Source of the DNA: an uncultured Collinsella sp.
Lineage (GTDB): Bacteria > Actinomycetota > Coriobacteriia > Coriobacteriales > Coriobacteriaceae
DNA length: 64,000 bases
Direction: 5' to 3'
Assembly: GCA_959023295.1 (NCBI GenBank)
Contig: CAUFBM010000009.1
Coordinates: 7,405 to 71,404, forward strand
Shown here: one piece after another, positions 51,965-64,000 of the stretch
Layout: each line of letters begins with the position of its first letter
Position numbering within the stretch: the stretch's first letter is position 1
Notes under the pieces: model-generated
Seen by the model: only the letters and a program-made list of their open reading frames with translations
What the model was told of the DNA's origin: nothing
The model's database searches: none
Program-made: the position numbers and the translations under genes

Positions 51965-52717
51965 ATGAGCGAAACCAATAACTCGAACGAGGTCGTCGTC
52001 AGTATCAAGAACCTCCAGAAGGCCTTTGGCGATAACGTGGTCCTGCGCGATATCGATCTAGATGTGCACAAGGGTGAGGTCGTTGTGGTCCTGGGCCCTT
52101 CGGGCTCGGGCAAGTCGACGATGCTTCGCTGCATCAATCGTCTGGAGCATCCCACGAGCGGCTCGATCATCGTTGAGGGCGTGGACGTGTGCGCCAAGGG
52201 TGTCGACCTCAACAAAGTGCGCACGCACCTGGGCATGGTGTTTCAGCAGTTCAACCTGTTCCCGCACCTGTCGGTCAAAAAGAACGTCATGCTTGCGCAG
52301 CAAAAGGTGCTCAAGCGCAGCAAGGAAGAGGCCGAGAAGATTGCCATCGAGGAGCTGACCAAGGTCGGCCTGGCCGAGCGCATCGACTTTATGCCGAGCC
52401 AGCTCTCGGGCGGTCAGCAGCAGCGCGTGGCGATCGCCCGCGCCCTGTCGATGAATCCACACGTGATGCTCTTTGACGAGGCTACGTCAGCGCTTGACCC
52501 CGAGCTTGTCCGCGACGTTCTTGGCGTCATGCGCGATCTTGCACGTGACGGTATGACCATGATCGTGGTGACGCACGAGATGGGCTTTGCCCGCGATGTC
52601 GCCGACCGCGTGGTCTTTATGGACGGCGGCGTTATCGTGGAAGAGGGCACGCCGAGCGAGGTCTTCGACCATCCCAAGAGCGAACGCACCAAGGCGTTCT
52701 TGGGCAATATCTCGTAG
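51965..52717 (+). CDS. polar amino-acid ABC ATP-binding protein (GlnQ-like)
   Basis: [23 protein letters not shown] and VTHEMGFA motifs. Confidence 0.95.
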
Positions 52718-52739
52718 CCGGTTGATGTAACTGCCGTTA

Positions 52740-52781
52740 CAAAAGAGCGGGGCTGGACTTGAATCCAGCCCCGCTCTTTTG
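52740..52781. terminator. bidirectional terminator
   Basis: CAAAAGAGCGGGGCTGGA/TCCAGCCCCGCTCTTTTG between convergent genes. Confidence 0.88.
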
Positions 52782-52832
52782 TAGGGATGGGGATGCGCTT
52801 TGACGCAGGCTCTCTTGGAGACCCTGGGCTCG

Positions 52833-53252
52833 TTACGCGAGCTCGGCTCCGAGGGCCTTGCAAGCGGTCTCGCCCTCGTCGTCGGGCGCGTCGTAGCAGA
52901 TGGTGGAGTCCACGACGTTGACGCCGGCCTCGTCGGCGTCGGCCTTCCAGTTATCCATCCACTCGCCCTCGGCCCACGAATAGGAGCCAAAGAGGACGAC
53001 CTTCTTGTCGCCGAGGACTTCCTTGACCTCATCCCACATCGGCTGGAACTCGTCGTACTCGAGCTCCTCGGACCCCATGGCGGGGCAGCCGAAGGCGAAG
53101 GCGTCATAGCCGGTGGCCTTGTCGGCGGAGAAGTCGGCGCAGGAGATGACATCTGTCTCGGCGCCGACTGACGTCGCGCCCTCGGCAACGAGGTTTGCCA
53201 TGGCCTCGGTGTTGCCCGTGCCGCTCCAGTAGACGACCGCGATCTTGCTCAT
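52833..53252 (-). CDS. short-chain flavodoxin
   Basis: YWSGTGNTE, GCPAMG and FGSYSW motifs; GAAAGGA RBS. Confidence 0.95.
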   Translation of the reverse strand: MSKIAVVYWSGTGNTEAMANLVAEGATSVGAETDVISCADFSADKATGYDAFAFGCPAMGSEELEYDEFQPMWDEVKEVLGDKKVVLFGSYSWAEGEWMDNWKADADEAGVNVVDSTICYDAPDDEGETACKALGAELA

Positions 53253-53298
53253 GTGTTGTCCTTTCGGTTGTGCGGCGTGCGGCCGCGGTTTGTATGTT

Positions 53299-54003
53299 CT
53301 ATCGGGTTGCCTGGGCAAGTTTTGCCAGGCTATGGCCCTGCTGATAGACATGGGTGAGGTGTTGCGTGCAAGCGCGGTAGGATTCGAACGTCGCAAGCGC
53401 TTGCCCGACATTCGTGTAGACCTTCCAAGGTCCAAAGACCTTGTAGTTCTCGCCATGCTGGACGATAAATTGACGCACATCTTCGTAGGGATATCCCAAA
53501 AAATAGCCAATTTCGTGAGGAAACTCGCAGGTGCAGCCGTCGCCGCAAGGTTCGCTCTGCGCAAGAACGCATGGTCCGTCGGCGCAGGCGCTTTCCGTGG
53601 CATTGCTGCTTGCCAGCGTGATGCGCGCGGCGAGATGCACCAGGGATGCGGGCAGGTTGTGGACATCGTAACCTTCGGCGGCAAGCGCCGTCGTGGCGCG
53701 GGGGTCGGAGAGGTATCGCATGAGGTCCGCAGGGCGGTACACATAGATGAGCGCTCCGCAGGGGCGCCAGACCAAGACGCTCGTGTGGATGCCGAACGGT
53801 TGGAGTTCTCGGTTGCATTGAGCTATGACGGCAAGGAGATGTGTACGACGCACTTCGATATGGGGGTTGCCGGGCTTGCCGTTTTGACTTGCGTAGACGC
53901 CGGGATAGGTAAAGAGCGATGCCGGCTTGATGCCCGCGAGCGTGGGAGAGCAGTTGCGCACGACCGCTGCCTGAAACGTTGGGATATCTATGGTTCGAGT
54001 CAC
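53299..54003 (-). CDS. DUF3793-family protein
   Basis: CSPTLAGIKPASL, FPHEIGYFLGYPYEDV and WKVY motifs; adjacent to flavodoxin. Confidence 0.85.
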   Translation of the reverse strand: MTRTIDIPTFQAAVVRNCSPTLAGIKPASLFTYPGVYASQNGKPGNPHIEVRRTHLLAVIAQCNRELQPFGIHTSVLVWRPCGALIYVYRPADLMRYLSDPRATTALAAEGYDVHNLPASLVHLAARITLASSNATESACADGPCVLAQSEPCGDGCTCEFPHEIGYFLGYPYEDVRQFIVQHGENYKVFGPWKVYTNVGQALATFESYRACTQHLTHVYQQGHSLAKLAQATR

Positions 54004-54026
54004 GGCGCTCCTTACGGATCTAAACT

Positions 54027-54070
54027 GTTAGCCTAGGAAAACTTATACACGAAAGTAAGCCATGGTCAAC
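54027..54070. promoter_or_regulatory. two related dyads, possible DtxR-type metal-regulator sites
   Basis: GTTAGCCTAGGAAAAC (54027-42) and GTAAGCCATGGTCAAC (54055-70). Confidence 0.45.
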
Positions 54071-54131
54071 AAAAAAGTTTGAAGAGGGAAACTAATTGAC
54101 CGAACAGACATGATTTTGGGTTAAGATGGGG

Positions 54132-54148
54132 ACACCCCATGGGGGTAT
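54132..54148 (+). promoter_or_regulatory. CsoR-type operator
   Basis: ACACCCCATGGGGGTAT C/G-tract dyad about 30 bp upstream of an HMA protein. Confidence 0.65.
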
Positions 54149-54177
54149 CTAGATAGTGCTACTTGAAAGGGGAGCGC

Positions 54178-54561
54178 ATGAGTGACTTGCTCAACCCTGC
54201 GAATCTCATCGTGCTGGCCGTCATTGCCGTCGGCATGTTTTTTGGACTGCGTCGCATTGCCGCTTCGACACACGGGAAGAGTTGCTGCAGCGATGGTACG
54301 AGCGGCAAGAAGGCCAAAAAGGTTGTTGTGGTGGATACCGATGCGTCACACTATCCCTATAGCGATGAGCTGCTCATCGGCGGCATGAGCTGTGACGGCT
54401 GCGCTCAGAACGTAGCCAATGCCCTCAATGCGCTGGATGGCGTGTGGGCAACGGTGACGTATGCGGACCACACGGCACGCGTGCGCTCTAAGCAGCCGGT
54501 TGATCGTGGTGTCCTCGAGACGGCCGTGAAAGACGCGGGCTACTACGTCATGACGCTGTAA
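54178..54561 (+). CDS. membrane-anchored heavy-metal-associated (CopZ-like) protein
   Basis: N-terminal TM helix, SCC motif, GMSCDGC HMA motif. Confidence 0.85.
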   Translation: MSDLLNPANLIVLAVIAVGMFFGLRRIAASTHGKSCCSDGTSGKKAKKVVVVDTDASHYPYSDELLIGGMSCDGCAQNVANALNALDGVWATVTYADHTARVRSKQPVDRGVLETAVKDAGYYVMTL

Positions 54562-54587
54562 GCGCCGCCCTGGATGCGCTTCCTTGG

Positions 54588-55013
54588 CTAGGCTCGTCCG
54601 CGCAGTTCGATGTCTTGGATGTCGTCGAAGTTGATGGCGATGTCTCGGAGCTTGAGGAGCTTGAAGGCGGGGAGCGCCTCGTCGAGGATGCCGGTGCGGC
54701 TGCGATAGCCGTATGTATCGTAATAGTTGACACGAACCAAGTCGCCACGTTTGAGACCCTCGAGCTTTTTAGAAAGTACGAGGGCTTTTTCTTCCGTGAG
54801 CTCACGTTTTGACTCGACGGTGATTTCCTGCTTGCGCACGAGTTCGTAGTATCCCGTGAGGGCGGCAAAGGGCATAAACTGCGCGGCGCGGTTGGCGCGC
54901 ACGGCACCGTTGGCAGTGAGCTTGGGGTCGGCGGCGCGGCGCCTGCCCTCGGGGTCCGCCAGGCGCTCGAAGGCGGTCGGCGGGCGCACGGGCTGTTGTT
55001 TGGGTTTAGGCAC
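54588..55013 (-). CDS. YolD-like protein (partner of the Y-family polymerase)
   Basis: RAAQFMPFAALTGY motif; GTG start after GGAGG, overlapping the polymerase stop. Confidence 0.8.
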   Translation of the reverse strand: MPKPKQQPVRPPTAFERLADPEGRRRAADPKLTANGAVRANRAAQFMPFAALTGYYELVRKQEITVESKRELTEEKALVLSKKLEGLKRGDLVRVNYYDTYGYRSRTGILDEALPAFKLLKLRDIAINFDDIQDIELRGRA

Positions 55014-56511
55014 GGTGTCCTCCAACTTGGTCGTTGCGTTCGCGCGCGGTGGCGCCGGCGGTAAAGCTTAATCCCTTGACGAGCGCGTTCTTGCCGTACT
55101 TGCCTTTCACGGCCAAGACGGCGCGCGCCAGGTCGCGCTCGCGCTCATCGGCCTCGATATCGCTGAACAGATCGATGGTGGTAAATTCCTCGGGCATGAG
55201 GTTGCCAAATCCAAGGTTGATGCGCTTGACCGGTCGTTTGGGATCGACGGTCTGCGCCCAGAGCTCATCGAAATAGCCCATGATTTTCTTAAACGAATTA
55301 GTGCGCTCGGGCAGCTTTCGCGAGGCGTTGGAGTGCGCAAAGAGTGCGGCATAGCCACCACGCGGTTTGCCGCCATGCTCTCCCACAAAGATGCCATCGA
55401 TTGCCTGCGCTTCGCGCACCAGGCGACGCCTTTCGTCATCGCGCTGGACGGGCTTGGGAGCACGGGGCGCGAGCTCGGAGCCGTCGGTCGCTGCGGGTTC
55501 GATGCCCGAGGTACTCGAGCGCAGGTGTCCGCAGCCGTCTATATACTGCGCCGTGCCGCTGGCGTTGAGCCGGCGTATGTCGGCGCGCTCGCTTGCATAG
55601 CCCACAAAGAGCGAGATGCTGTCGCACACCACGTGCTTGTCGATCAAATCCAGCACGGCGGCATCGACCATTTCGCGCAAGACGGTGTAGGCCTGCTCGT
55701 AGGCATAGCCCTTCGAGAGCACCTGCCCCGTGGTGGTCGAGGTCGCTTGCGGGCGATAGGCTTGGATATCGGCGATGGTCGTTGGCTCGCGCCCAAAGGC
55801 GTGGTCGATAAGATATTCGGCATTGACGCCGAGCTCATCGTAAAGCAGGTTTTCGTCGAGCGCGGCGACGCCCATCAGATCGTAGACGCCGTACTTTTCG
55901 AGGCGGGCTGCCACGCCGGGGCCGATGCCCCAGATATCGGTAATGGGACGATGAGGCCAGATCTCCTTGCGAAAGGTCTCGTCGTCGAGTATGCCGATGC
56001 GGCTGGGTACGTGCTTGGCGGTAATGTCGAGCGCTACCTTGGCCTGGAATAGGTTGGGGCCGATGCCGACCGTCGCCGTGATGCCGGTGCGCGCGAGGAC
56101 CTCGTCGCGCAGCGTGCAGGCGAACCCTTCCGCATCTGTGTGATAGAGGTCCAGATAGGGCGTCACGTCGATAAAGCACTCATCGATGGAGTAGACGTGC
56201 ACGTCCTGGGGGCTGACGTATTCCAGATAGATACCGTAGATTTTCGCCGACACCTCCATGTAATGCTGCATGCGCGGTACGGCCGTGATGTAGTCGATGC
56301 CATCGGGAATTTCGAACAGACGGCAGCGATTGCGTATCCCGAGGTCCTTCATGGCCTGTGTGATGGCGAGGCAGATGGTCGTGCGCCCGCGCGATTCGTC
56401 GGCGACGACCAGGTTGGTGGTGAGCGGATCGAGCCCACGGTCGACGCACTCGACGCTGGCATAAAACGTCTTGAGGTCGATGCAGATATAGATGTGCTGC
56501 TCGTGCGCCAT
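55006..56511 (-). CDS. Y-family translesion DNA polymerase (UmuC/ImpB/MucB/SamB-like)
   Basis: IDLKTFYASVE, YSIDECF, DIWGIG, KYGKNA and RERN.QVGGH motifs. Confidence 0.93.
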   Translation of the reverse strand: MAHEQHIYICIDLKTFYASVECVDRGLDPLTTNLVVADESRGRTTICLAITQAMKDLGIRNRCRLFEIPDGIDYITAVPRMQHYMEVSAKIYGIYLEYVSPQDVHVYSIDECFIDVTPYLDLYHTDAEGFACTLRDEVLARTGITATVGIGPNLFQAKVALDITAKHVPSRIGILDDETFRKEIWPHRPITDIWGIGPGVAARLEKYGVYDLMGVAALDENLLYDELGVNAEYLIDHAFGREPTTIADIQAYRPQATSTTTGQVLSKGYAYEQAYTVLREMVDAAVLDLIDKHVVCDSISLFVGYASERADIRRLNASGTAQYIDGCGHLRSSTSGIEPAATDGSELAPRAPKPVQRDDERRRLVREAQAIDGIFVGEHGGKPRGGYAALFAHSNASRKLPERTNSFKKIMGYFDELWAQTVDPKRPVKRINLGFGNLMPEEFTTIDLFSDIEADERERDLARAVLAVKGKYGKNALVKGLSFTAGATARERNDQVGGHRA

Positions 56512-56525
56512 CCGTGTCCTTCCAT

Positions 56526-56557
56526 CAAACACATGTTCTTATCGAATACATGTTCGA
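56526..56557 (-). promoter_or_regulatory. tandem LexA (SOS) boxes
   Basis: CAAACACATGTTCT (56526-39) and TCGAATACATGTTCGA (56542-57) versus TCGAAC-N4-GTTCGA. Confidence 0.8.
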
Positions 56558-56736
56558 TAATACCTGCTTGCACGGACATCGTCAAAACCTGTCCCTCTTT
56601 GGCGGGTATGGTCGTGCGGTTGCATCGGGTTTTTTAACGCAGCTCTAAAGAGCGCGAAACAGCTCGGAAAACCTCGCTTCGTAGCATGAGTCTAACGATT
56701 GATACCGCCTATACGCACGGAAGGGTTGTGGGGATA

Positions 56737-57261
56737 ATGGTCAACTATGGGTTTGGTATGCCGACGCGCTTGGTTGCGGATGGGGATGTGGCTCGCTGGT
56801 GCGGGCGATTGGTTGCCCACTATGGCGGCACCAAGGCACTGGTCGTGCTGGGAGGCGACAAGCGCACGCGTGATGAGCTCGTTTCGGCGGCGCTGGGCTC
56901 GCTCGATCGCGCCCTGCTCGAGCGCGTGCTTTTCCGCTGCGGTTTGGTCGGGGGCGACGGGGGAGACGAGCTGATCGACGAAGCCGTGGCCCTGGCGACC
57001 GACGAAGGCGTGGACTTTGTCCTGGCGATCGGCGATGCCGATACGGCCGGCTTTGCGCGCGAGCTCGCCCGTCGTATGGCGGCGCTCGATGCCGGTGAGG
57101 ACGGCTTTGTGCCTTATGGATGCATCGTCTCCGAGGGAAAAGTGCCCGCCGTTGTGGGTGCCGGCGAGGTTCCCGTTTTCGCCATTATCGCGCCCGAACT
57201 GCTGGAGGGCATTGGGTCTCCTCTGCGTGAGTTGCTCGGCAGCGTGTGCGTCGCGGCCTAA
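56737..57261 (+). CDS. truncated or degenerate iron-containing alcohol dehydrogenase-like N-terminal domain
   Basis: NYGFGMPTRLV, KALVVLGG and VDFVLAIG resemble the Fe-ADH N-domain; GGGS is replaced by GDAD and the metal-binding C-domain is absent. Confidence 0.5.
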   Translation: MVNYGFGMPTRLVADGDVARWCGRLVAHYGGTKALVVLGGDKRTRDELVSAALGSLDRALLERVLFRCGLVGGDGGDELIDEAVALATDEGVDFVLAIGDADTAGFARELARRMAALDAGEDGFVPYGCIVSEGKVPAVVGAGEVPVFAIIAPELLEGIGSPLRELLGSVCVAA

Positions 57262-57460
57262 TATTTACCATAAAGGGATAGGTTCTATTTGATTGGTAAA
57301 GCGTTTGACCTGCCAAAATAAGCCTGTCCCTTTTTGATCGGTTGCCGTTTGGGGGCCGATTGGCAACGCTCGCTGATTGTAGTCTTGACCTGCGCTAGAA
57401 TAGTGGCATCTGAATGTCCGGGCGCATGGAGGCGTGCGCCCGTATGCTGAGGAGGACTCT

Positions 57461-59155
57461 ATGGCAACTGTTGCCGCACCTATCGATGCTACGTCGACTG
57501 CCGCTTGGAAGGCACTCGAGGCTCATCAGGAGAAGCTCGAGGCCGATGGTATCGACCTCAAGGCCTGGTTCGCTGCCGATGCCGAGCGCGTGAACAAGCT
57601 GAGCTTTGACGCCGGTGACCTGCACTTCGATCTGTCGAAGAACCTGGTGACCGATGAGACCGTCAAGCTGCTGTGCGATCTTGCCCGCGAGGTGAAGCTC
57701 GAGGAGCGCCGCGACGCCATGTTCTCCGGCGAGCACATTAACACCACCGAGGACCGCGCCGTCCTGCACACCGCGCTTCGCCGCCCCGCAACCGAGAGGG
57801 GCCAGCTCATCGTCGACGGCCAGGATGTCGTCGCCGACGTGCACGAGGTCCTCGACCGCATGTATGCCTTCGCCGAGCGCGTGCGCTCCGGTGAGTGGAA
57901 GGGCGTTACCGGCAAGAAGATCGAGCACCTGGTGTCCATCGGCATCGGTGGCTCCGATCTGGGCCCGGTCATGGCCTACGAGGCTCTGCGTCCCTATGCC
58001 GACGCCGGTATCGACTGCCGCTATATCTCCAACATCGACCCCAACGACCAGGCCGAGAAGCTTAAGGGCCTGGATCCCGAGACCACGCTCGTGATCATCG
58101 TCTCCAAGACCTTCACCACGCTCGAGACCCTCACCAACGCCCGCGAGGTCAAGACCTGGATGCTCGAGCAGCTCAAGGCCCAGGGCGCCATCGACGGCTC
58201 CGATGAGCAGAACGCCGAGGCCGTGGCAAAGCACTTCGTCGCCGTTTCCACCGCACTCGAGAAGGTTGAGGCCTTCGGTATCGACCCCGCCAACGCCTTC
58301 GGCTTCTGGAACTGGGTCGGCGGCCGCTACTCCGTCGACTCCGCCGTGGGCCTGTCGCTGATCGTCGTGCTCGGTCCCGAGCGCTTCCAGCAGTTCCTCG
58401 AGGGCTTCCACGCTATCGACGAGTACTTCTGCAACACGCCGCTCGAGAACAATGCCGTTGCGCTGATGGGCCTGCTCAACGTCTGGTACGTCAACTTCTT
58501 CGGTTCCAAGAGCCACGCCGTGCTGCCGTACTGCCAGTACCTGCATCGTTTCCCGGCCTACCTGCAGCAGCTCACCATGGAGTCCAACGGCAAGCATGTC
58601 CGCTGGGACGGCAGCGCCGTGACCTCCGACACCGGTGAGATCTTCTGGGGCGAGCCCGGCACCAACGGTCAGCACGCCTTCTACCAGCTGCTGCACCAGG
58701 GCACCGTGGTGGTCCCGGCCGATTTCATTGCCTTCGCCAATACCGCCAACCCTGCGACCGACAGCGGCCAGGACGTGCACGAGCTGTTCCTGGGCAACTT
58801 CCTGGCCCAGACCAAGGCGCTCGCCTTTGGTAAGACGGCCGATGAGGTGCGCGCCGAGGGCACGCCCGAGCAGATCGTCCCGGCCCGCTGCTTTGAGGGC
58901 AACCGTCCGACGACCTCGATCTTTGGCGACACGTTGACCCCGTTCGCACTCGGCGAGCTCATCGCCCTGTACGAGCACATCACGTTTGTCGAGGGCACGG
59001 TCTGGGGCATCGACTCCTACGACCAGTGGGGCGTCGAGCTGGGCAAGCAGCTTGCCAAGCAGATCACCCCTGCCTTCCACGACGATGCCGCCAAGGCCGA
59101 GCAGGACGCTTCGACCCAGGCGCTCATCGAGTTCTACCGCGCTCACCGCAAGTAG
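57461..59155 (+). CDS. pgi: glucose-6-phosphate isomerase
   Basis: [31 protein letters not shown] and DQWGVELGK motifs. Confidence 0.98.
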
Positions 59156-59187
59156 TCGCTGCTGTTAACGCATCGCGCCTTATAGTC

Positions 59188-59222
59188 AGGGGCCCGTATC
59201 CCATCGGATGCGGGCCCCTTTG
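59188..59222 (+). terminator. terminator after pgi
   Basis: AGGGGCCCGTATCC/GGATGCGGGCCCCT stem followed by Ts. Confidence 0.8.
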
Positions 59223-59296
59223 CTTTGCCGTGGCCCCGGGGCGCACGGCCTTTAAGGATCTTCGCCGGAGCGTCGCGTGCTGCGAGGGCCCTGCGT

Positions 59297-60601
59297 CTAG
59301 AGCTCGGCCTCCGCATGGCCTCGCTGCGCCTCGGGCAGCTCCCCGTAGAGCGGATGGTCTTCGAGCCTAAAGCGCTCGACCTGTTCGGGAGTGCAGCCGC
59401 GCACAAAGAGCCACGAGCGATCGATCGGCGTCGCCATGAGCGTGCTGGGCAGCGCGTCGGCGCGGTCGGAAAACACCCGGGCACTCTCGGGATCCTGGAA
59501 CGCCAGCACCAGATGCGTGTCGCAGTTGCCCATGATGGAGCGTGCGCGTGCCTCGCCATAGAGCGCATCGAGCTGGTTGGTCGACTGCAGCAGCAGCGTT
59601 GCCCAGATGTTGCGGCTTCGGATAATCGAGAGCACGTTGTCGATCTGGGGGATCTGCAGATTTGCGAAGTCATCGAGCATAAAGCGCACGGGCACGGGCA
59701 GGCTGCCGTCGGGCTGCCTATCGGCCTCACGAATGAGGCCCATAAACGCCTGCGAAATAAAGAGGCCGGTCAGCGGATCGAGATTGCGGTCAATATCGCT
59801 CACGGTTACAAACAGGGCGCAGGGGGTGTGTCCCATGGAAGCGAAGTCCGCCTGATGGCACTCACGATAGAGCTGTGCCGCACCGTCGAATCCCAGACAC
59901 ATGACCTTTTCGGCAAGGATGCCGACGATGCTCGCGTGCATGCGCTCGGCATTTTGCGTAATGGCGTAGCGCCGCCATAGCGAGAGGGCATAGCTTTGGG
60001 GGTCGGTCGTGATCAGGTCGTCAAACAATCGACCTGTGGCACCGTCCTGCAGGTGCTCGATCAGCTTGATGACCGAGCTGATCGTCTGCTCGTCGGCGGG
60101 TAGCTGTTCGGTGACGTAGGCGATAAGACACGACAGCAGGTTTGCCGCCGCATGATCCCAAAAAGGCTGGTTGTTGTCCTCGATGGGGCAGATGGCCTTT
60201 GCCACCGAGAGGATGTCCTGCTGGTTGGGCCTGCCGTCCGCCTTGCGGCGAATGTGCCTCAGGGGGTTGTAGCCGCAGCGCTCGATGCCGGGCGCAAGGG
60301 CCGGGACGGTGTTGAGGTCGGCGAAGTTGAGACATTGCACGCGGTAACCGTGGGCTGCCAGCACGGGTCCCACTTCGCGACAGAGCGTGCCTTTGGTGTC
60401 GAGCACGATGTAGCTTGCGTTCATTTGCAGCAGGTTGGGCTTGAGGACGTTTCGGGTCTTGCCGGCTCCCGAGGGGCCGATCACAAGTGCATTGTTGTTG
60501 AGTCCCGTTTGGCGGGTGTCGCAGGAAAGCGTTCGATCCTTGGCGAGGATGGTGGACGATGCGGACTCAGATGCGGCGAGACGGCTGGCGAGGTTAGACA
60601 T
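59297..60601 (-). CDS. VirD4/TraG-like P-loop ATPase lacking an N-terminal membrane anchor
   Basis: NNNALVIGPSGAGKT, PNLLQ, DTKG, YNPL, PFW, FMLDDFAN, IRSRNI..LQS.NQL..LYG and GNCD motifs; AAGGAGG RBS inside the clpP 3' end. Confidence 0.85.
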   Translation of the reverse strand: MSNLASRLAASESASSTILAKDRTLSCDTRQTGLNNNALVIGPSGAGKTRNVLKPNLLQMNASYIVLDTKGTLCREVGPVLAAHGYRVQCLNFADLNTVPALAPGIERCGYNPLRHIRRKADGRPNQQDILSVAKAICPIEDNNQPFWDHAAANLLSCLIAYVTEQLPADEQTISSVIKLIEHLQDGATGRLFDDLITTDPQSYALSLWRRYAITQNAERMHASIVGILAEKVMCLGFDGAAQLYRECHQADFASMGHTPCALFVTVSDIDRNLDPLTGLFISQAFMGLIREADRQPDGSLPVPVRFMLDDFANLQIPQIDNVLSIIRSRNIWATLLLQSTNQLDALYGEARARSIMGNCDTHLVLAFQDPESARVFSDRADALPSTLMATPIDRSWLFVRGCTPEQVERFRLEDHPLYGELPEAQRGHAEAEL

Positions 60602-61211
60602 GGGCGACCTCCTTGGTGGTCGAGAGGATTTCGTGGGCAAAGCCGAGCTCGACGGCGCGCTCGGCCGAAAGGTAGGTGTCTTTTGCAGTGAGGGACTGGA
60701 TGCGCTTGGGCGTGAGGCCGCTGCGGTCCGAGAGGATTTGCGTGAGGGTCTTGCGGGTCTGCATGAGACGCCGGCTGGTTTCCTGCAGCGCAAGTGCCGA
60801 GCCGCCTGCCCCCTGGGGGATCAGCGGGTCGTGAATCATGAGCTCTGCATGGGGCGCCATACGGCGATCGTCGCCGCCCATAAAGATCACGGCGCCCATG
60901 GACGCGGCGAATTCCAGGCAGACGGTGCGGATGGGGCACGATGCGAGGCGCATGGCGTCGTAGATCGCAAGGCCCGATCGCACGCTTCCGCCGGCGCTGG
61001 CGACAAATATGGTGATGGGGCGGCTGGGGTCGGTGGCATCGAGCAGGCGGATCTGCTGGCATAGGTCGTGGGCCATCGGGGTTTCGATGTTTCCCATGAC
61101 GGAGAGCTCGCGACGGGCGAGCATCTCATCGTAAATGCTGGTGAGCGTGATGCCTCGGGCGGATTCACGCATGGTGAGGGGGCTGATGATGGGGGAATGA
61201 TTGGTGTCCAT
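60594..61211 (-). CDS. ClpP-family protease with intact catalytic triad
   Basis: SAGGSV..GLAIYD, AASMG (Ser), MIHDP (His), KDTYLSAERAVELGF (Asp); GAAAGGAG RBS. Confidence 0.92.
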   Translation of the reverse strand: MDTNHSPIISPLTMRESARGITLTSIYDEMLARRELSVMGNIETPMAHDLCQQIRLLDATDPSRPITIFVASAGGSVRSGLAIYDAMRLASCPIRTVCLEFAASMGAVIFMGGDDRRMAPHAELMIHDPLIPQGAGGSALALQETSRRLMQTRKTLTQILSDRSGLTPKRIQSLTAKDTYLSAERAVELGFAHEILSTTKEVAHV

Positions 61212-61274
61212 GAGGACTCCTTTCTGTTGGTTGTGTTGTGGAATAGGATTGTTGCCCGCGGAGGGGCTGGCGGG

Positions 61275-62165
61275 CTACAGGGTTCGTCCGAGCCTGAGAT
61301 CGAGCTCGGTTGTGGGGCAGGCTGCCTGTTCGTGCGGCTCGCAAGCGCCAAGGGCTCCAAAGCGATAGAGCGTTGCGGCGGGCGTGGTGTAGGCGAGCCG
61401 CAGCTGATGCTCGACAGGGGCACATCCGTCATTTTTGTAATGAGCCGCGTAGTACTGCGCGATGCTGGCGTTCATCTCGCTGCCATTGCGATGGCGCTCA
61501 AACTGGCGTCTGCAGGTCTCGATGATCTTTGCTACCGACTTGGGTGCCGTCGCGGGAACAAGGGCGAGATAGCCCTCAAATAGCTCGTTGATGCTCAGGA
61601 GGCACAGCAGGTCGATCAGCGTCCTTATGGCTGCTCCCTCGGCGGAAAAGTGCGCGGTCATGCGGTTATATCGGTTGCGGTCGACGATGGCCGCATGGGG
61701 TCTTGGAGTTTTCTGCCCCGTGGTCCCGGGCTTTTGCCGCGCCTGTGTATTGAGCTCGACGTTGCAGCGCTTGAGGCCGTCCAACGGAAGGAACAGTGCG
61801 GTGCGCAGGGTGTTCCGCTTGCTTTCGAGTTCATGACGCTCGTCGGGTTCCCATTCGAGCTTGAGTTTCGTGTCGAGCGCCGTAAGCATATGGGCTAGGC
61901 AGCCTACGGTAAGAACGCACGAATCGTTGTCGCGTTTTGGGGCATAGGGGTCTGTCAGCTTGCGAATGTCGGGGTCGCCCATGATCTTTGTGCAGCGCTT
62001 CAGCAGTTGAGGGTGGTCGGCCAAGATCGTCGCGAGCGGTAGCGACGCGTAGTTCTTGATGGTCGCGGCGGCAAAGGCGGCGTCATATTCGTTTGCATAT
62101 GCTCGCTCAATTCGGGCATCCAGAATGCTTTTCTTATCGCCGTCTTCAGCGTGGTGGTTTGTCAT
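61275..62165 (-). CDS. hypothetical protein (296 aa), first gene of the ClpP/VirD4-like cassette
   Basis: Long ORF, GGAG RBS before ATG 62165, co-oriented 63 bp upstream of clpP; no recognisable motif. Confidence 0.7.
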   Translation of the reverse strand: MTNHHAEDGDKKSILDARIERAYANEYDAAFAAATIKNYASLPLATILADHPQLLKRCTKIMGDPDIRKLTDPYAPKRDNDSCVLTVGCLAHMLTALDTKLKLEWEPDERHELESKRNTLRTALFLPLDGLKRCNVELNTQARQKPGTTGQKTPRPHAAIVDRNRYNRMTAHFSAEGAAIRTLIDLLCLLSINELFEGYLALVPATAPKSVAKIIETCRRQFERHRNGSEMNASIAQYYAAHYKNDGCAPVEHQLRLAYTTPAATLYRFGALGACEPHEQAACPTTELDLRLGRTL

Positions 62166-62507
62166 AGCTTCTCCAATCGGTTGATGTTCGTGCTGTTTGT
62201 TGATGTGTTGGTTGTCGTGAGTGATGTGCTTGCCGTGGGTGATGTGCTGACGTTGGGGTGCTATGCGGTTTTCAATGAGCCCGTGAGGCAGTTGCTGCAG
62301 GGGCGGGATGGAACGGCCCATGCAAGGCGGAAGGCATCGTGCTCAAAATCGAGACAGCAATGCCCTGGGTGCCTCACATGTGGCAGTTACCTCATTAAGT
62401 TGTCATTGCGTTTGGGGTTGTACTTTGCCGATCTTCTTTCTCTTACACGCTGAAAACTGAAACTGAATATGCTCGATCAAACGATGACCACCGGAGCGGT
62501 CATCTTT

Positions 62508-62536
62508 AAAGTACGTTCGTTTTGCTGATTTGACAA
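62508..62536 (-). promoter_or_regulatory. sigma70-type promoter for the cassette
   Basis: Minus strand TTGTCA-N17-TACTTT with an A-rich upstream tract. Confidence 0.6.
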
Positions 62537-62769
62537 GACTAATTTTGAAATTTTTTTCTACGGGGTGAAACGAGGTTCGTGGAACGGTCGCGCTTGGTGT
62601 CGCCAGCTATGTATGTGGTGGCTCAGCGTTTGGCTGGAACGATTGAGCCCCGAGATGGCGTCCCGTTCATGTTCGGGACAATATGACTTTTTACCCGTTG
62701 CAGACAGAGCCGCCGTGGGTGTTCTGTATGATGGCTCAGACAAGGTTACTCAATGACAGGGAGGCATAT

Positions 62770-63612
62770 ATGGCAATCAAAGCCATCGCAATGGATATCG
62801 ACGGTACGCTCACCAACGACCAAAAGGTCATCAGCCCGCGTACGCGCGAGAAGCTGCTCGCGGCGCAGGAGTCGGGAATTAAGCTCATCTTGGCTTCGGG
62901 TCGTCCCGCATGGGGGCTGCACGCCTTGGCGCAGGAGCTCGACCTTCAAAACCATGACGGTCTTCTAGTTGCCTTTAATGGCGCGCATGTGGTCGACGCT
63001 CAGACCGATGAGGTCCTTTTTGACCAGGCCATGCCGGCTGACGAGCTGCATCGCCTGATTGATCACCTGCGTAATTTTGACGTGATCCCTATGATTTCGC
63101 TCGGTCGTAATCTGCACGTCGAGGATTCGTACCATTGCATGATCACGCTGCCTGACGACTCGCAGAAGAATATCGTCAAGTATGAGCGCGATGCGTGCGA
63201 TCTTAAGATTCGCGAGGTCGAGAGCTTGCATGAGGTTGTGGACGCTTATCCCGTGGACAAGCTGCTGACGGCGGGCGATCCGGCCTACCTGCAGGCGCAT
63301 TACGAGGAGATGTATGCGCCCTTTAAGCAGACGCTTTCGGGCATGTTTACGGCCGACTGGTACTTTGAGTACACGGCGCCCGGTATCGACAAGGCCCGCG
63401 CGCTCGAGGGTGCCCTGCCCAAGCTCGGTATCGATGCCAGCGATGTCGTCTCGTTTGGCGACGGCCAGAACGACAAGTCCATGATTGAGTGGGCCGGCAC
63501 CGGTGTTGCCATGGGTAACGCCGTCGATGAGGTTAAGGCTGTGGCCCAGATGGTGACCGCCAATAACAACGAAGACGGTATTGCGGTGGCGCTGGATAAG
63601 CTGCTGGGCTAG
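62770..63612 (+). CDS. Cof-type HAD-IIB hydrolase
   Basis: DIDGTL, ASGRP, FNGA, FGDGQND and AMGNA motifs. Confidence 0.92.
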   Translation: MAIKAIAMDIDGTLTNDQKVISPRTREKLLAAQESGIKLILASGRPAWGLHALAQELDLQNHDGLLVAFNGAHVVDAQTDEVLFDQAMPADELHRLIDHLRNFDVIPMISLGRNLHVEDSYHCMITLPDDSQKNIVKYERDACDLKIREVESLHEVVDAYPVDKLLTAGDPAYLQAHYEEMYAPFKQTLSGMFTADWYFEYTAPGIDKARALEGALPKLGIDASDVVSFGDGQNDKSMIEWAGTGVAMGNAVDEVKAVAQMVTANNNEDGIAVALDKLLG

Positions 63613-63675
63613 AATCGCCGATAATGCATGGTTCGGGCGCCTGCTTACAGGCGCCCTTTTGTTAGGGAGGGTGCC

Positions 63676-64000
63676 GTGTCCGCATTTCCGTTCGACGCCG
63701 TTATCTTTGACATGGACGGTGTCATTGTCGATACCGAGTATTACTACCTGGGCGAGACTGCCGCGTTTGCCAAGGAGCTGGGGCTTAATCTGACTCAAGA
63801 GGAGTTGAATGGGCAGGTCGGTACCTCCCATCAGTTCTTCCTGCATATGCTGGTCGATTGGTTTGAGCGCGCCGGTAAGGGGCATTTCACTGGCGAGGAA
63901 GCGTTGGCCCGTTGGGACGAGTGGGCGCATAAACGTCCGCGCGACTATCAGGCTTTGATTAACCCAGGCGCCGTGGATACGATTCGAGAGCTGCCGCGCC
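63676..64000 (+). CDS. HAD-IA family phosphatase, 5' part (runs off the window)
   Basis: Manual translation MSAFPFDAVIFDMDGVIVDTE; GGGAGG RBS. Not in the ORF track. Confidence 0.85.
   Translation, partial: MSAFPFDAVIFDMDGVIVDTEYYYLGETAAFAKELGLNLTQEELNGQVGTSHQFFLHMLVDWFERAGKGHFTGEEALARWDEWAHKRPRDYQALINPGAVDTIRELPR

Follow-up and report, generated by a model that had tools for sequence, protein, structure and literature searches.

A three-gene cassette between pgi and a Cof hydrolase gene

The window analyzed here is a stretch of 64,000 nucleotides (nt) from an uncultured Collinsella sp., and the subject of this report is a minus-strand cassette in it that encodes an all-helical companion protein (ORF1), a ClpP paralog and a VirD4/TraG-like ATPase without a membrane anchor. 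ORF1 (61275..62165; 296 amino acids, aa) is followed by clpP (60594..61211; 205 aa) and by the ATPase gene (59297..60601; 434 aa), all in the same orientation, and the trio is flanked by pgi, which lies on the plus strand and ends at 59155, and by a Cof/HAD hydrolase gene (Hydrolase_3). This arrangement had been described in an earlier note made from the sequence alone, and it is borne out by the list of open reading frames (ORFs), which covers positions 52000-64000 of the window, and by Pfam scans of five neighbor proteins. The 8-nt overlap of the clpP stop with the ATPase start (60594..60601) and the AAGGAGG ribosome-binding site of the ATPase inside clpP (60608..60614, 6 nt 5' of the ATG), pointed out in the same note, are present in the sequence.

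An anchorless ATPase of the coupling-protein family

The ATPase exceeds the Pfam cut-offs for T4SS-DNA_transf (PF02534), TraG-D_C (PF12696) and TrwB_AAD_bind (PF10412), and it passes NF045973, the model of CD1115 VirD4-like proteins, with 254.3 bits against a cut-off of 250. The 41 residues ahead of Walker A (residues 42-49; 60455..60478) contain no hydrophobic 19-mer and therefore no transmembrane (TM) anchor; the earlier note was right about the anchor but put the distance at about 35 residues. When 1.84 billion representatives were searched with a profile, a large clade of proteins of 400-470 aa with short hydrophilic N-termini was recovered, and among the 150 best ATPase representatives a TM segment occurs only in the single row of DE type. 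The Walker B motif (LDDF, residues 309-312, within 59297..60601) has the acidic pair DD and not DE. This is invariant in 30 homologs from a plain search and reaches at least 90% in 63 diverse representatives; the second acid is Asp in 155/156 sequences, a count that is partly built in since the contig scans described below used a DD pattern. Glu is found in five of the six canonical neighbors with a readable Walker B (DEF). A change from Glu to Asp at this position often slows hydrolysis.

By sequence profile, the closest solved structure is Cag5 (8dol, E 8e-12), and 56 cassette ATPases group in a single clade apart from eight canonical coupling proteins (FastTree, support 0.998). The 2023 PADLOC library gives weak matches only (mad8, E 7e-8), and 490/667 of the nearest annotated plasmid relatives, at about 30% identity, lie on conjugative plasmids. 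The LGF at residues 236-238 of the window ATPase was considered as an IGF loop and rejected, being not conserved in the wider family (at most 4/76 rows in that column). Two cassette ATPases, P0068 and P0110, have an acidic C-terminal tail closing in IPF, which we take to resemble the C-terminal tip of SSB and which is not conserved across the family. This genome also encodes a second, distant protein (26% identity, about 640 aa) that resembles type IV coupling proteins (T4CPs), at G000:C1:182887-183936 (L031).

A ClpP paralog with an altered docking pocket

The cassette ClpP matches PF00574 with 153 bits, has the N-terminal pore loop and retains the catalytic Ser-His-Asp triad (S104/H127/D178), as the earlier note had read it; the triad is intact in 148/156 cassette ClpPs. 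It fails the housekeeping equivalog TIGR00493 (122.9 against a cut-off of 308.6). The window gene is a paralog, because a housekeeping clpP is present on another contig, where a ClpX-like ATPase gene directly follows it. In a quick tree, 12 housekeeping ClpPs from both phyla sampled here (Actinomycetota and Bacillota) cluster in a single clade whose branch is 1.59 long (SH-aLRT 100).

The contacts of ClpP with the IGF loops of its ATPases and with ADEP have been described as Ile28/29, Leu49, Tyr63, Phe83, Ile90/91 and Leu115 (bioRxiv 10.1101/638692), and the role of the same pocket is supported in PMC8182300. At Ile29, Leu49, Phe83 and Leu115, the window ClpP has E35, R55, L89 and A119. Among 156 cassette ClpPs, Glu occupies the Ile29 column in 107, followed by Ser, Gln, Lys and Arg; the Leu49 column is Arg in 95, with Leu kept in 34; and the Phe83 column is Ala or Gly in 118. 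The same columns in the 12 housekeeping ClpPs are Ile (12/12), Leu (12/12) and Tyr or Phe (12/12). Other pocket columns are mostly retained in the cassette proteins (Tyr63 as Tyr or Phe in 137, Ile91 as Val or Ile in 153, Leu115 in 124). Arg23 has mostly given way to Glu and Asp/Glu27 to basic or polar residues, HQP has become HDP in 146/156, and Arg171 is retained in 9/156. Since several hydrophobic residues of the pocket that receives the IGF loops of ClpX and ClpC are replaced, we infer that the docking face of the cassette ClpP was rebuilt for a different partner.

Two proteins of 637 aa (P0005 and P0006) that looked like ClpP-ATPase fusions were rejected as such: they are clpP frameshifts in which the linker is out of frame and the catalytic Asp is missing. 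These alleles read on into the ATPase frame, and one cluster has 47 members.

Conserved pairing of clpP and ATPase outside type IV secretion loci

Cassette loci were collected by scanning contigs of genomes and metagenomes with the ATPase pattern (best 80 of 579 and best 80 of 551). Together with 13 Coriobacteriia loci, and after dropping one duplicate (L151), this gave 172 loci, those from the contig scans being mainly from gut and rumen Bacillota. A co-oriented clpP lies within four genes of the ATPase in 162/172 of these ATPase-selected loci (72/79 and 77/80 in the two scans). Near-duplicates are included in the locus counts, which overstate independence; 75 complete pairs are left at 85% ClpP similarity. 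The adjacency spans Actinomycetota and Bacillota at 30-60% identity, and clpP accompanies 0/17 canonical loci with membrane-anchored T4CPs. In 301 genomes of one Bacillota order (a random draw of 300 plus the centre genome), 67 match the ATPase, mostly with canonical proteins of about 600 aa; the short-frame ATPases among them (one each in G1142, G1019, G1080 and G1181, and a pair in the centre genome) have DD and a clpP directly upstream without exception. Five of these, the four from the random draw and a second copy in the centre genome, are anchorless ATPases additional to the loci above (5/5 with clpP). Viral contigs yielded only canonical, DE-type T4CPs without clpP (16 loci).

VirB4, VirB6, a relaxase (probed with a single family) and PcfB were found in 0/172 cassette loci; a toprim-like gene in 3/172 is the sole exception among the markers of type IV secretion systems (T4SSs). 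The canonical loci from which the marker queries were taken contain PcfB in 15/17, VirB6 in 5/17, VirB4 in 4/17 and a relaxase in 1/17. Of the cassette loci, 84/172 are at least 12 kb long, and 7-8 kb were looked at in most. The earlier note had seen no relaxase or VirB4 gene in the window, and this extends to the whole of this genome, in which probes for VirB4, relaxase, PcfB, VirB6, DUF6017 and toprim have no tblastn match at E<=1e-8.

The cassette has no constant partner among nuclease or DNA-binding genes. Single loci have defense-like neighbors, which were hand-picked without a control set: DdmD/DdmE-like proteins (L063), a KAP NTPase (L066), MkoC-like helicases (L070, L071 and L081), Cas1 with HNH/RuvC (L072), a WYL protein (L065) and a PstI-type restriction-modification pair (L294). 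In the first of these (L063:268-6184; genome G200, Coriobacteriales), the DdmD-like (E 1e-35) and DdmE-like (E 3e-6) genes lie two genes downstream of the cassette. A conserved protein of about 215 aa without a Pfam match is encoded 3' of the cassette in both phyla (L072:6554-7219, and in L062, L063, L078 and L113).

A helical companion domain shared across phyla

ORF1 has no match in Pfam (AAA+ models included), NCBIfam, PADLOC or PHROG. Its predicted structure consists of helices only, without a strand of three or more residues, at a mean predicted local distance difference test (pLDDT) score of 60; the full model has no Foldseek match at E<=0.001 and its best fold comparison is Z 3.8. The ESM Atlas returned unnamed clusters only for ORF1 and nothing usable for the domain described next.

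In profile comparisons, residues ~12-140 of ORF1 (61746..62132) align with proteins of about 115 aa that are encoded upstream of clpP in Bacillota (hhalign, 91.5%), defining a helical domain of about 110 aa whose first helix is of the [PS]L[DE]ER[LI] type. Against a profile without rows of the ORF1 family, the match is 96.6% (E 7e-10, 103 columns), and 61 control families reach at most 2.2%. Residues ~164-198 (61572..61676) may be a degenerate second copy, the match being weak (64.7%, E 6e-5, 35 columns). The N-terminal pattern had been seen by eye in neighbors, and a regular expression was fixed before new loci were fetched. In the new loci it matched 51/174 against 3/325 proteins and 5/43 against 1/179 families, and with new families only, 2/27 against 1/176 (p=0.047). 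The pattern was initially taken for a short degron, an idea dropped when profile comparison identified it as the first helix of a whole domain; de novo motif discovery by expectation maximization was overfitted, null sets scoring equally high.

An iterated hidden Markov model (HMM) of the domain, at a cut-off of 1e-3, matches 161/2,678 proteins of a database built from these same loci, all of them co-oriented with the ATPase and encoded between six genes before and five genes after it; the matches fall in 113/172 cassette loci and 0/17 canonical loci. Motif-bearing companions of the L062, L066 and L072 type (E 2e-5 to 0.7 with the profile) were left out of the count. A Bacillota-only profile ranks ORF1 first of the 11,359 ORFs of this genome (E 0.0015, next 0.6). 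Because the database consists of cassette and canonical loci, the reciprocal search of genomes matters: an insensitive search of the 301 genomes gave four matches, three of which adjoin a cassette ATPase. The fourth is the C-terminal end of a 1,367-aa BspA-type protein in a cassette-bearing genome (L320:2488-6591; G556:C18), in which a long LRR_5 array of leucine-rich repeats (LRRs) continues into an entire companion with the domain. In several Lachnospiraceae cassettes, LRR_5 genes of their own stand upstream of clpP, and Sel1 and LRR proteins are among the partners.

The domain stands alone in 104 proteins, is in tandem in 18, N-terminal in 26 and internal or C-terminal in 13. Profile searches of the loci and the genome found it inside no ATPase and no ClpP, and 92 members have no Pfam match, models of effector-associated domains (EADs) and Death-like domains included. 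A stand-alone member is modeled at pLDDT 94; the model has no match at E<=0.001 in the PDB or BFVD by Foldseek, which does not prove a new fold, and the best-scoring structure is VIA at Z 5.4 (7du0, root-mean-square deviation 3.0, 63 aligned), with pyrin and death domains at Z 3.4-3.5. In three loci without a detected clpP, one of which (L208) is a contig of 2 kb, the domain is still beside the ATPase; this is a faint sign that the ATPase is what the domain addresses. Two companions (L066:5402-6433 and L194:3714-4154) have the first helix of the domain twice at the N-terminus.

Co-inheritance and selection

The cassette genes are co-inherited and under purifying selection. ClpP and ATPase distances are correlated (Mantel rho 0.61; maximum 0.28 in 500 permutations), and 14/19 supported splits of the ClpP tree are found again in the ATPase tree. 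In comparison with four diverged cassettes, dN/dS is 0.17-0.31 for ClpP and 0.11-0.35 for the ATPase, with 0.02-0.18 for pgi; two comparisons of ORF1 gave 0.32-0.37. A frameshift or stop is present in 0/54 ATPase alleles; separately, an internal stop was flagged in G239 and in G283. ORF1 outpaces its partners, being 44% identical where ClpP is 83% identical and about 20% identical where ClpP is 64-68% identical.

Presence and absence at the pgi site

Relatives carry the names Collinsella, Olsenella and Enorma. Among 36 genomes of the same genus, the ATPase is matched strongly in 29 (28 of the window type and one at 53% identity) and seven have weak T4CP matches or none; clpP lies directly upstream of the ATPase in all 30 loci that were cut out. 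ORF1 is present in 161/261 genomes of the genus and in 0/22 genomes of the family's other genera. Its alleles within the genus are 98% and 44% identical to the window protein, and the upstream gene at the same pgi locus of distant Collinsella is 19-20% identical. At the level of the class, 45/299 genomes match the ATPase at E<=1e-60; one of the 45 (L068) has a canonical 602-aa TM VirD4, relaxase and VirB4-like genes, and no clpP. A draw from the phylum has the ATPase in 4/400 genomes, all of the same genus.

Five genomes (G003, G005, G013, G019 and G107) have an empty site, with a pgi-Cof gap of about 55 bp against 3,430 bp, and their alignment with the window runs to ~59224 and resumes at 62654. 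This comparison places the left insertion boundary at a 14-pair terminator-like hairpin 3' of pgi (59188..59219), where pgi and the cassette meet head-on. The site is old, since distant Collinsella, with pgi 84-87% identical, also hold an ORF1-like gene, clpP and the ATPase beside pgi. In 6/21 genomes (L301, L302, L303, L306, L307 and L075), the final ~95 bp of pgi and its terminator (window 59126-59221) are repeated at 76% identity beyond ORF1, followed by about 930 bp with a weak DeoC-like gene and then Cof. Genome G001 (L073:1-5161, G001:C54) has two divergent cassettes in tandem with a pgi 3'-end copy between them; the first is 43% (ORF1), 83% (ClpP) and 79% (ATPase) identical to the window and the second is nearly identical, which may reflect accretion or a chimeric metagenome-assembled genome. 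Judging by these pgi copies and the tandem, recombination at the pgi end seems to bring cassette modules in and to take them out. The window itself has no second pgi 3'-end copy and no target-site duplication.

A proposed ATPase-ClpP machine and its rivals

In these loci, clpP and the ATPase gene are genetically coupled, the ClpP triad is intact, the membrane anchor and the T4SS genes have been lost, and the companion domain is confined to them. We give an even chance to the reading that the cassette encodes a dedicated ATPase-ClpP protease, addressed through the companion domain and probably serving in conflict or defense. The ATPase would be a soluble ring derived from Gram-positive conjugative coupling proteins, hexamerizing like TrwB and Cag5. 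It would capture domain-bearing proteins, or targets bound to them, as coupling proteins capture secretion substrates, and would pass them on, its cognate ClpP standing where the secretion channel would be, while the remodeled pocket would insulate that ClpP from housekeeping ClpX. The domain of about 110 aa would be the address or adaptor for the machine, and ORF1, a tandem of one domain and a bit, this genome's only recognizable client or adaptor. The earlier note had proposed the ATPase as a ClpP partner with the companion as substrate or adaptor; co-phylogeny, the remodeled pocket and the shared domain favor this, and the physical partnership and proteolysis are what we infer from them. 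Regulated proteolysis in biological conflict, sensing phage or a mobile element, is the likely role. It is suggested by the patchy, clean presence and absence at a fixed site and the tandem divergent cassettes, and by the fast evolution of ORF1, the LRR and Sel1 partners and the defense-like neighbors in single loci. The boldest form of the proposal, an immune pathway of gut Actinomycetota and Bacillota built on the first ATP-dependent protease with a RecA-fold conjugation motor where others have an AAA+ ring, with domain-tagged substrates and with LRR sensor fusions for detecting invaders, we rate somewhat below an even chance.

Several observations weigh against this proposal. To our knowledge, no coupling protein feeds a protease. 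Ten of the 172 loci lack clpP within four genes, some of them at contig ends, and the domain was not detected in 52/162 loci with clpP, so neither partner is shown to be obligatory. Co-phylogeny is also expected from co-transfer of adjacent genes alone, and only 13/26 supported splits of the ATPase tree are found again in the ClpP tree. Within the clade, pN/pS is 0.15 for ClpP, 0.18 for the ATPase and 0.41 for ORF1, with 0.05 for pgi, and frameshift alleles occur in clpP (1/54) and ORF1 (2/53). No conserved IGF-type tripeptide was found in the cassette ATPases (at most 4/76 rows in any column), and the DD of Walker B is as compatible with a switch as with a motor.

Such a switch is rather unlikely in our estimation. 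A slow DD ATPase would be a nucleotide-gated scaffold; domain proteins would polymerize or dock homotypically, as effector-associated and Death-like domains do, and upon a trigger would open the cassette ClpP, in the manner of acyldepsipeptides (ADEP), for effector processing or abortive infection. The domain is suitably small, all-helical and non-enzymatic, and its adjacent duplicates, tandems (18 proteins), fusions (39) and one LRR fusion match the arrangements of EADs described in PMC7159879; the Walker B residues and the defense-like neighbors in single loci (L063, L065, L066, L070, L071, L072, L081 and L294) also speak for it. However, in EAD systems a core component bears one copy as a fusion, whereas this domain occurs in no ATPase or ClpP, its 92 members match no EAD or Death-like Pfam model, and Death-fold structures reach only Z 3.4-3.5; a constant enzymatic effector is missing, and the neighbors were hand-picked without a control. 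It is less probable still, and in our view improbable, that the ATPase works on DNA like TrwB, FtsK and HerA, for instance restricting conjugative DNA on entry or poisoning T4SS rings already resident, with ClpP and the companion only setting its level. HerA-type ATPases do serve in defense, the TrwB_AAD_bind/T4SS-DNA_transf architecture is intact and some loci have helicase genes 3' of the ATPase, but a constant nuclease or DNA-binding partner is absent, and this reading would not account for a ClpP that is dedicated to the cassette, diverges together with the ATPase and has had its docking face rebuilt.

That the genes are a decaying remnant of an ICE (integrative and conjugative element), or chance neighbors without a joint function, is very improbable and largely refuted. 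Its attractions are that the ATPase passes the CD1115 conjugal-transfer model, that the plasmid relatives at ~30% identity are mostly conjugative (490/667), that an old pgi 3'-end copy flanks the cassette in 6/21 genomes and that TM-less T4CPs occur in real T4SSs such as that of pIP501 (PMC7434980). The earlier note had named confinement to complete ICE/T4SS loci, an adjacency that is not conserved and relaxed selection as findings that would speak against its reading. Instead, VirB4, relaxase, PcfB and VirB6 are absent from all 172 loci and the only T4SS marker is the toprim-like gene in three of them, the adjacency spans two phyla (162/172 plus 5/5 further ATPases), dN/dS of 0.11-0.37 indicates purifying selection, and all 54 ATPase alleles compared are without frameshift or stop.

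Relation to known systems

With the T4CPs (CD1115 of NF045973; TrwB, VirD4 and Cag5) the cassette ATPase shares a RecA-like nucleotide-binding domain with an all-alpha insert and a GxxGxGKT Walker A. T4CPs without a TM segment are a recognized subfamily that works with membrane partners in T4SSs, for example TraJ of pIP501, as described in PMC7434980. In contrast, the cassette has no T4SS, relaxase, PcfB/DUF3801 or small membrane partner, and its ATPases have a DD Walker B, form a separate clade and are accompanied by clpP in 162/172 loci. An intact-triad ClpP beside a ring-type ATPase and a small adaptor-like protein is also found in ClpXP, ClpAP and ClpCP, but the cassette ATPase lies outside the AAA+ class and lacks a conserved [IVL]G[FL] loop, and the ClpP pocket residues Ile29, Leu49 and Phe83 are mostly replaced. 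HerA/FtsK-type defense pairs (Sir2-HerA, nuclease-HerA and mad8 of MADS) presumably have in common with the cassette a soluble ATPase of the FtsK/HerA superfamily and a compact accessory operon; we take their partners to be an NADase or a nuclease, whereas here the partner is a peptidase. The EAD ternary conflict systems (Kaur et al. 2020, PMC7159879) combine an NTPase, a peptidase and a small helical adaptor domain, with adjacent domain copies, fusions and repeat-protein (LRR, Sel1) partners, as the cassettes do. None of the EAD models matches the cassette domain, which is joined to no core component, and the terms ClpP, VirD4 and TraG do not occur in the main text of that paper. No model of the 2023 PADLOC library matches ORF1 or ClpP. 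The cassette is therefore not a coupling protein in a T4SS context, a ClpXP/ClpCP system, an EAD system or a PADLOC system, and it borrows parts or grammar from each. We found no description of it in the open-access literature.

Textbook energy-dependent proteases use AAA+ motors. A coupling-protein ring that feeds or gates ClpP would be a new architecture for such proteases, and the cassette would then offer a soluble, membrane-free system for asking whether and how T4CPs translocate proteins. A ClpP with a rebuilt face and a portable address domain of ~110 aa could likewise serve as an orthogonal degradation pair. Since the cassette is widespread in a genus abundant in the human gut and present or absent at a clean site, its phenotype is testable with natural strain pairs.

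Upstream region and other neighbors

The earlier note had given the cassette its own promoter. A promoter-like site on the minus strand (TTGTCA-17-TACTTT, 62508..62536) agrees with the sigma-70 consensus at 8/12 positions, falling below the threshold of the consensus scan, which missed it; its spacing is kept in a divergent allele. A short inverted repeat on the same strand just 3' of the -10 hexamer (62483..62504) is a candidate operator or 5' hairpin, for which every Rfam family stays below its gathering score. Upstream of ORF1, the region 62478-62757 exists in at least two unrelated alleles, both with the -35/17 bp/-10 pattern and a hairpin. Most relatives have a very different allele, with the same TTG..-17 bp-TA...T spacing and a GACCGC hairpin downstream at the matching place; the window has the rarer one, which resembles the allele of the 44%-identity ORF1 type. 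The ORF1 start at 62165 (296 aa) is likelier than the 348-aa frame because GGAG precedes its ATG and the 44% allele starts there too. Contigs from RNA libraries of three studies overlap parts of all three genes and say nothing on strand or level. Two genes from pgi, on the minus strand (window 54588-56532), a Y-family (IMS) polymerase gene is followed by a 145-aa gene without a Pfam match, which we take to be YolD-like, the pair presumably forming a mutagenesis cassette.

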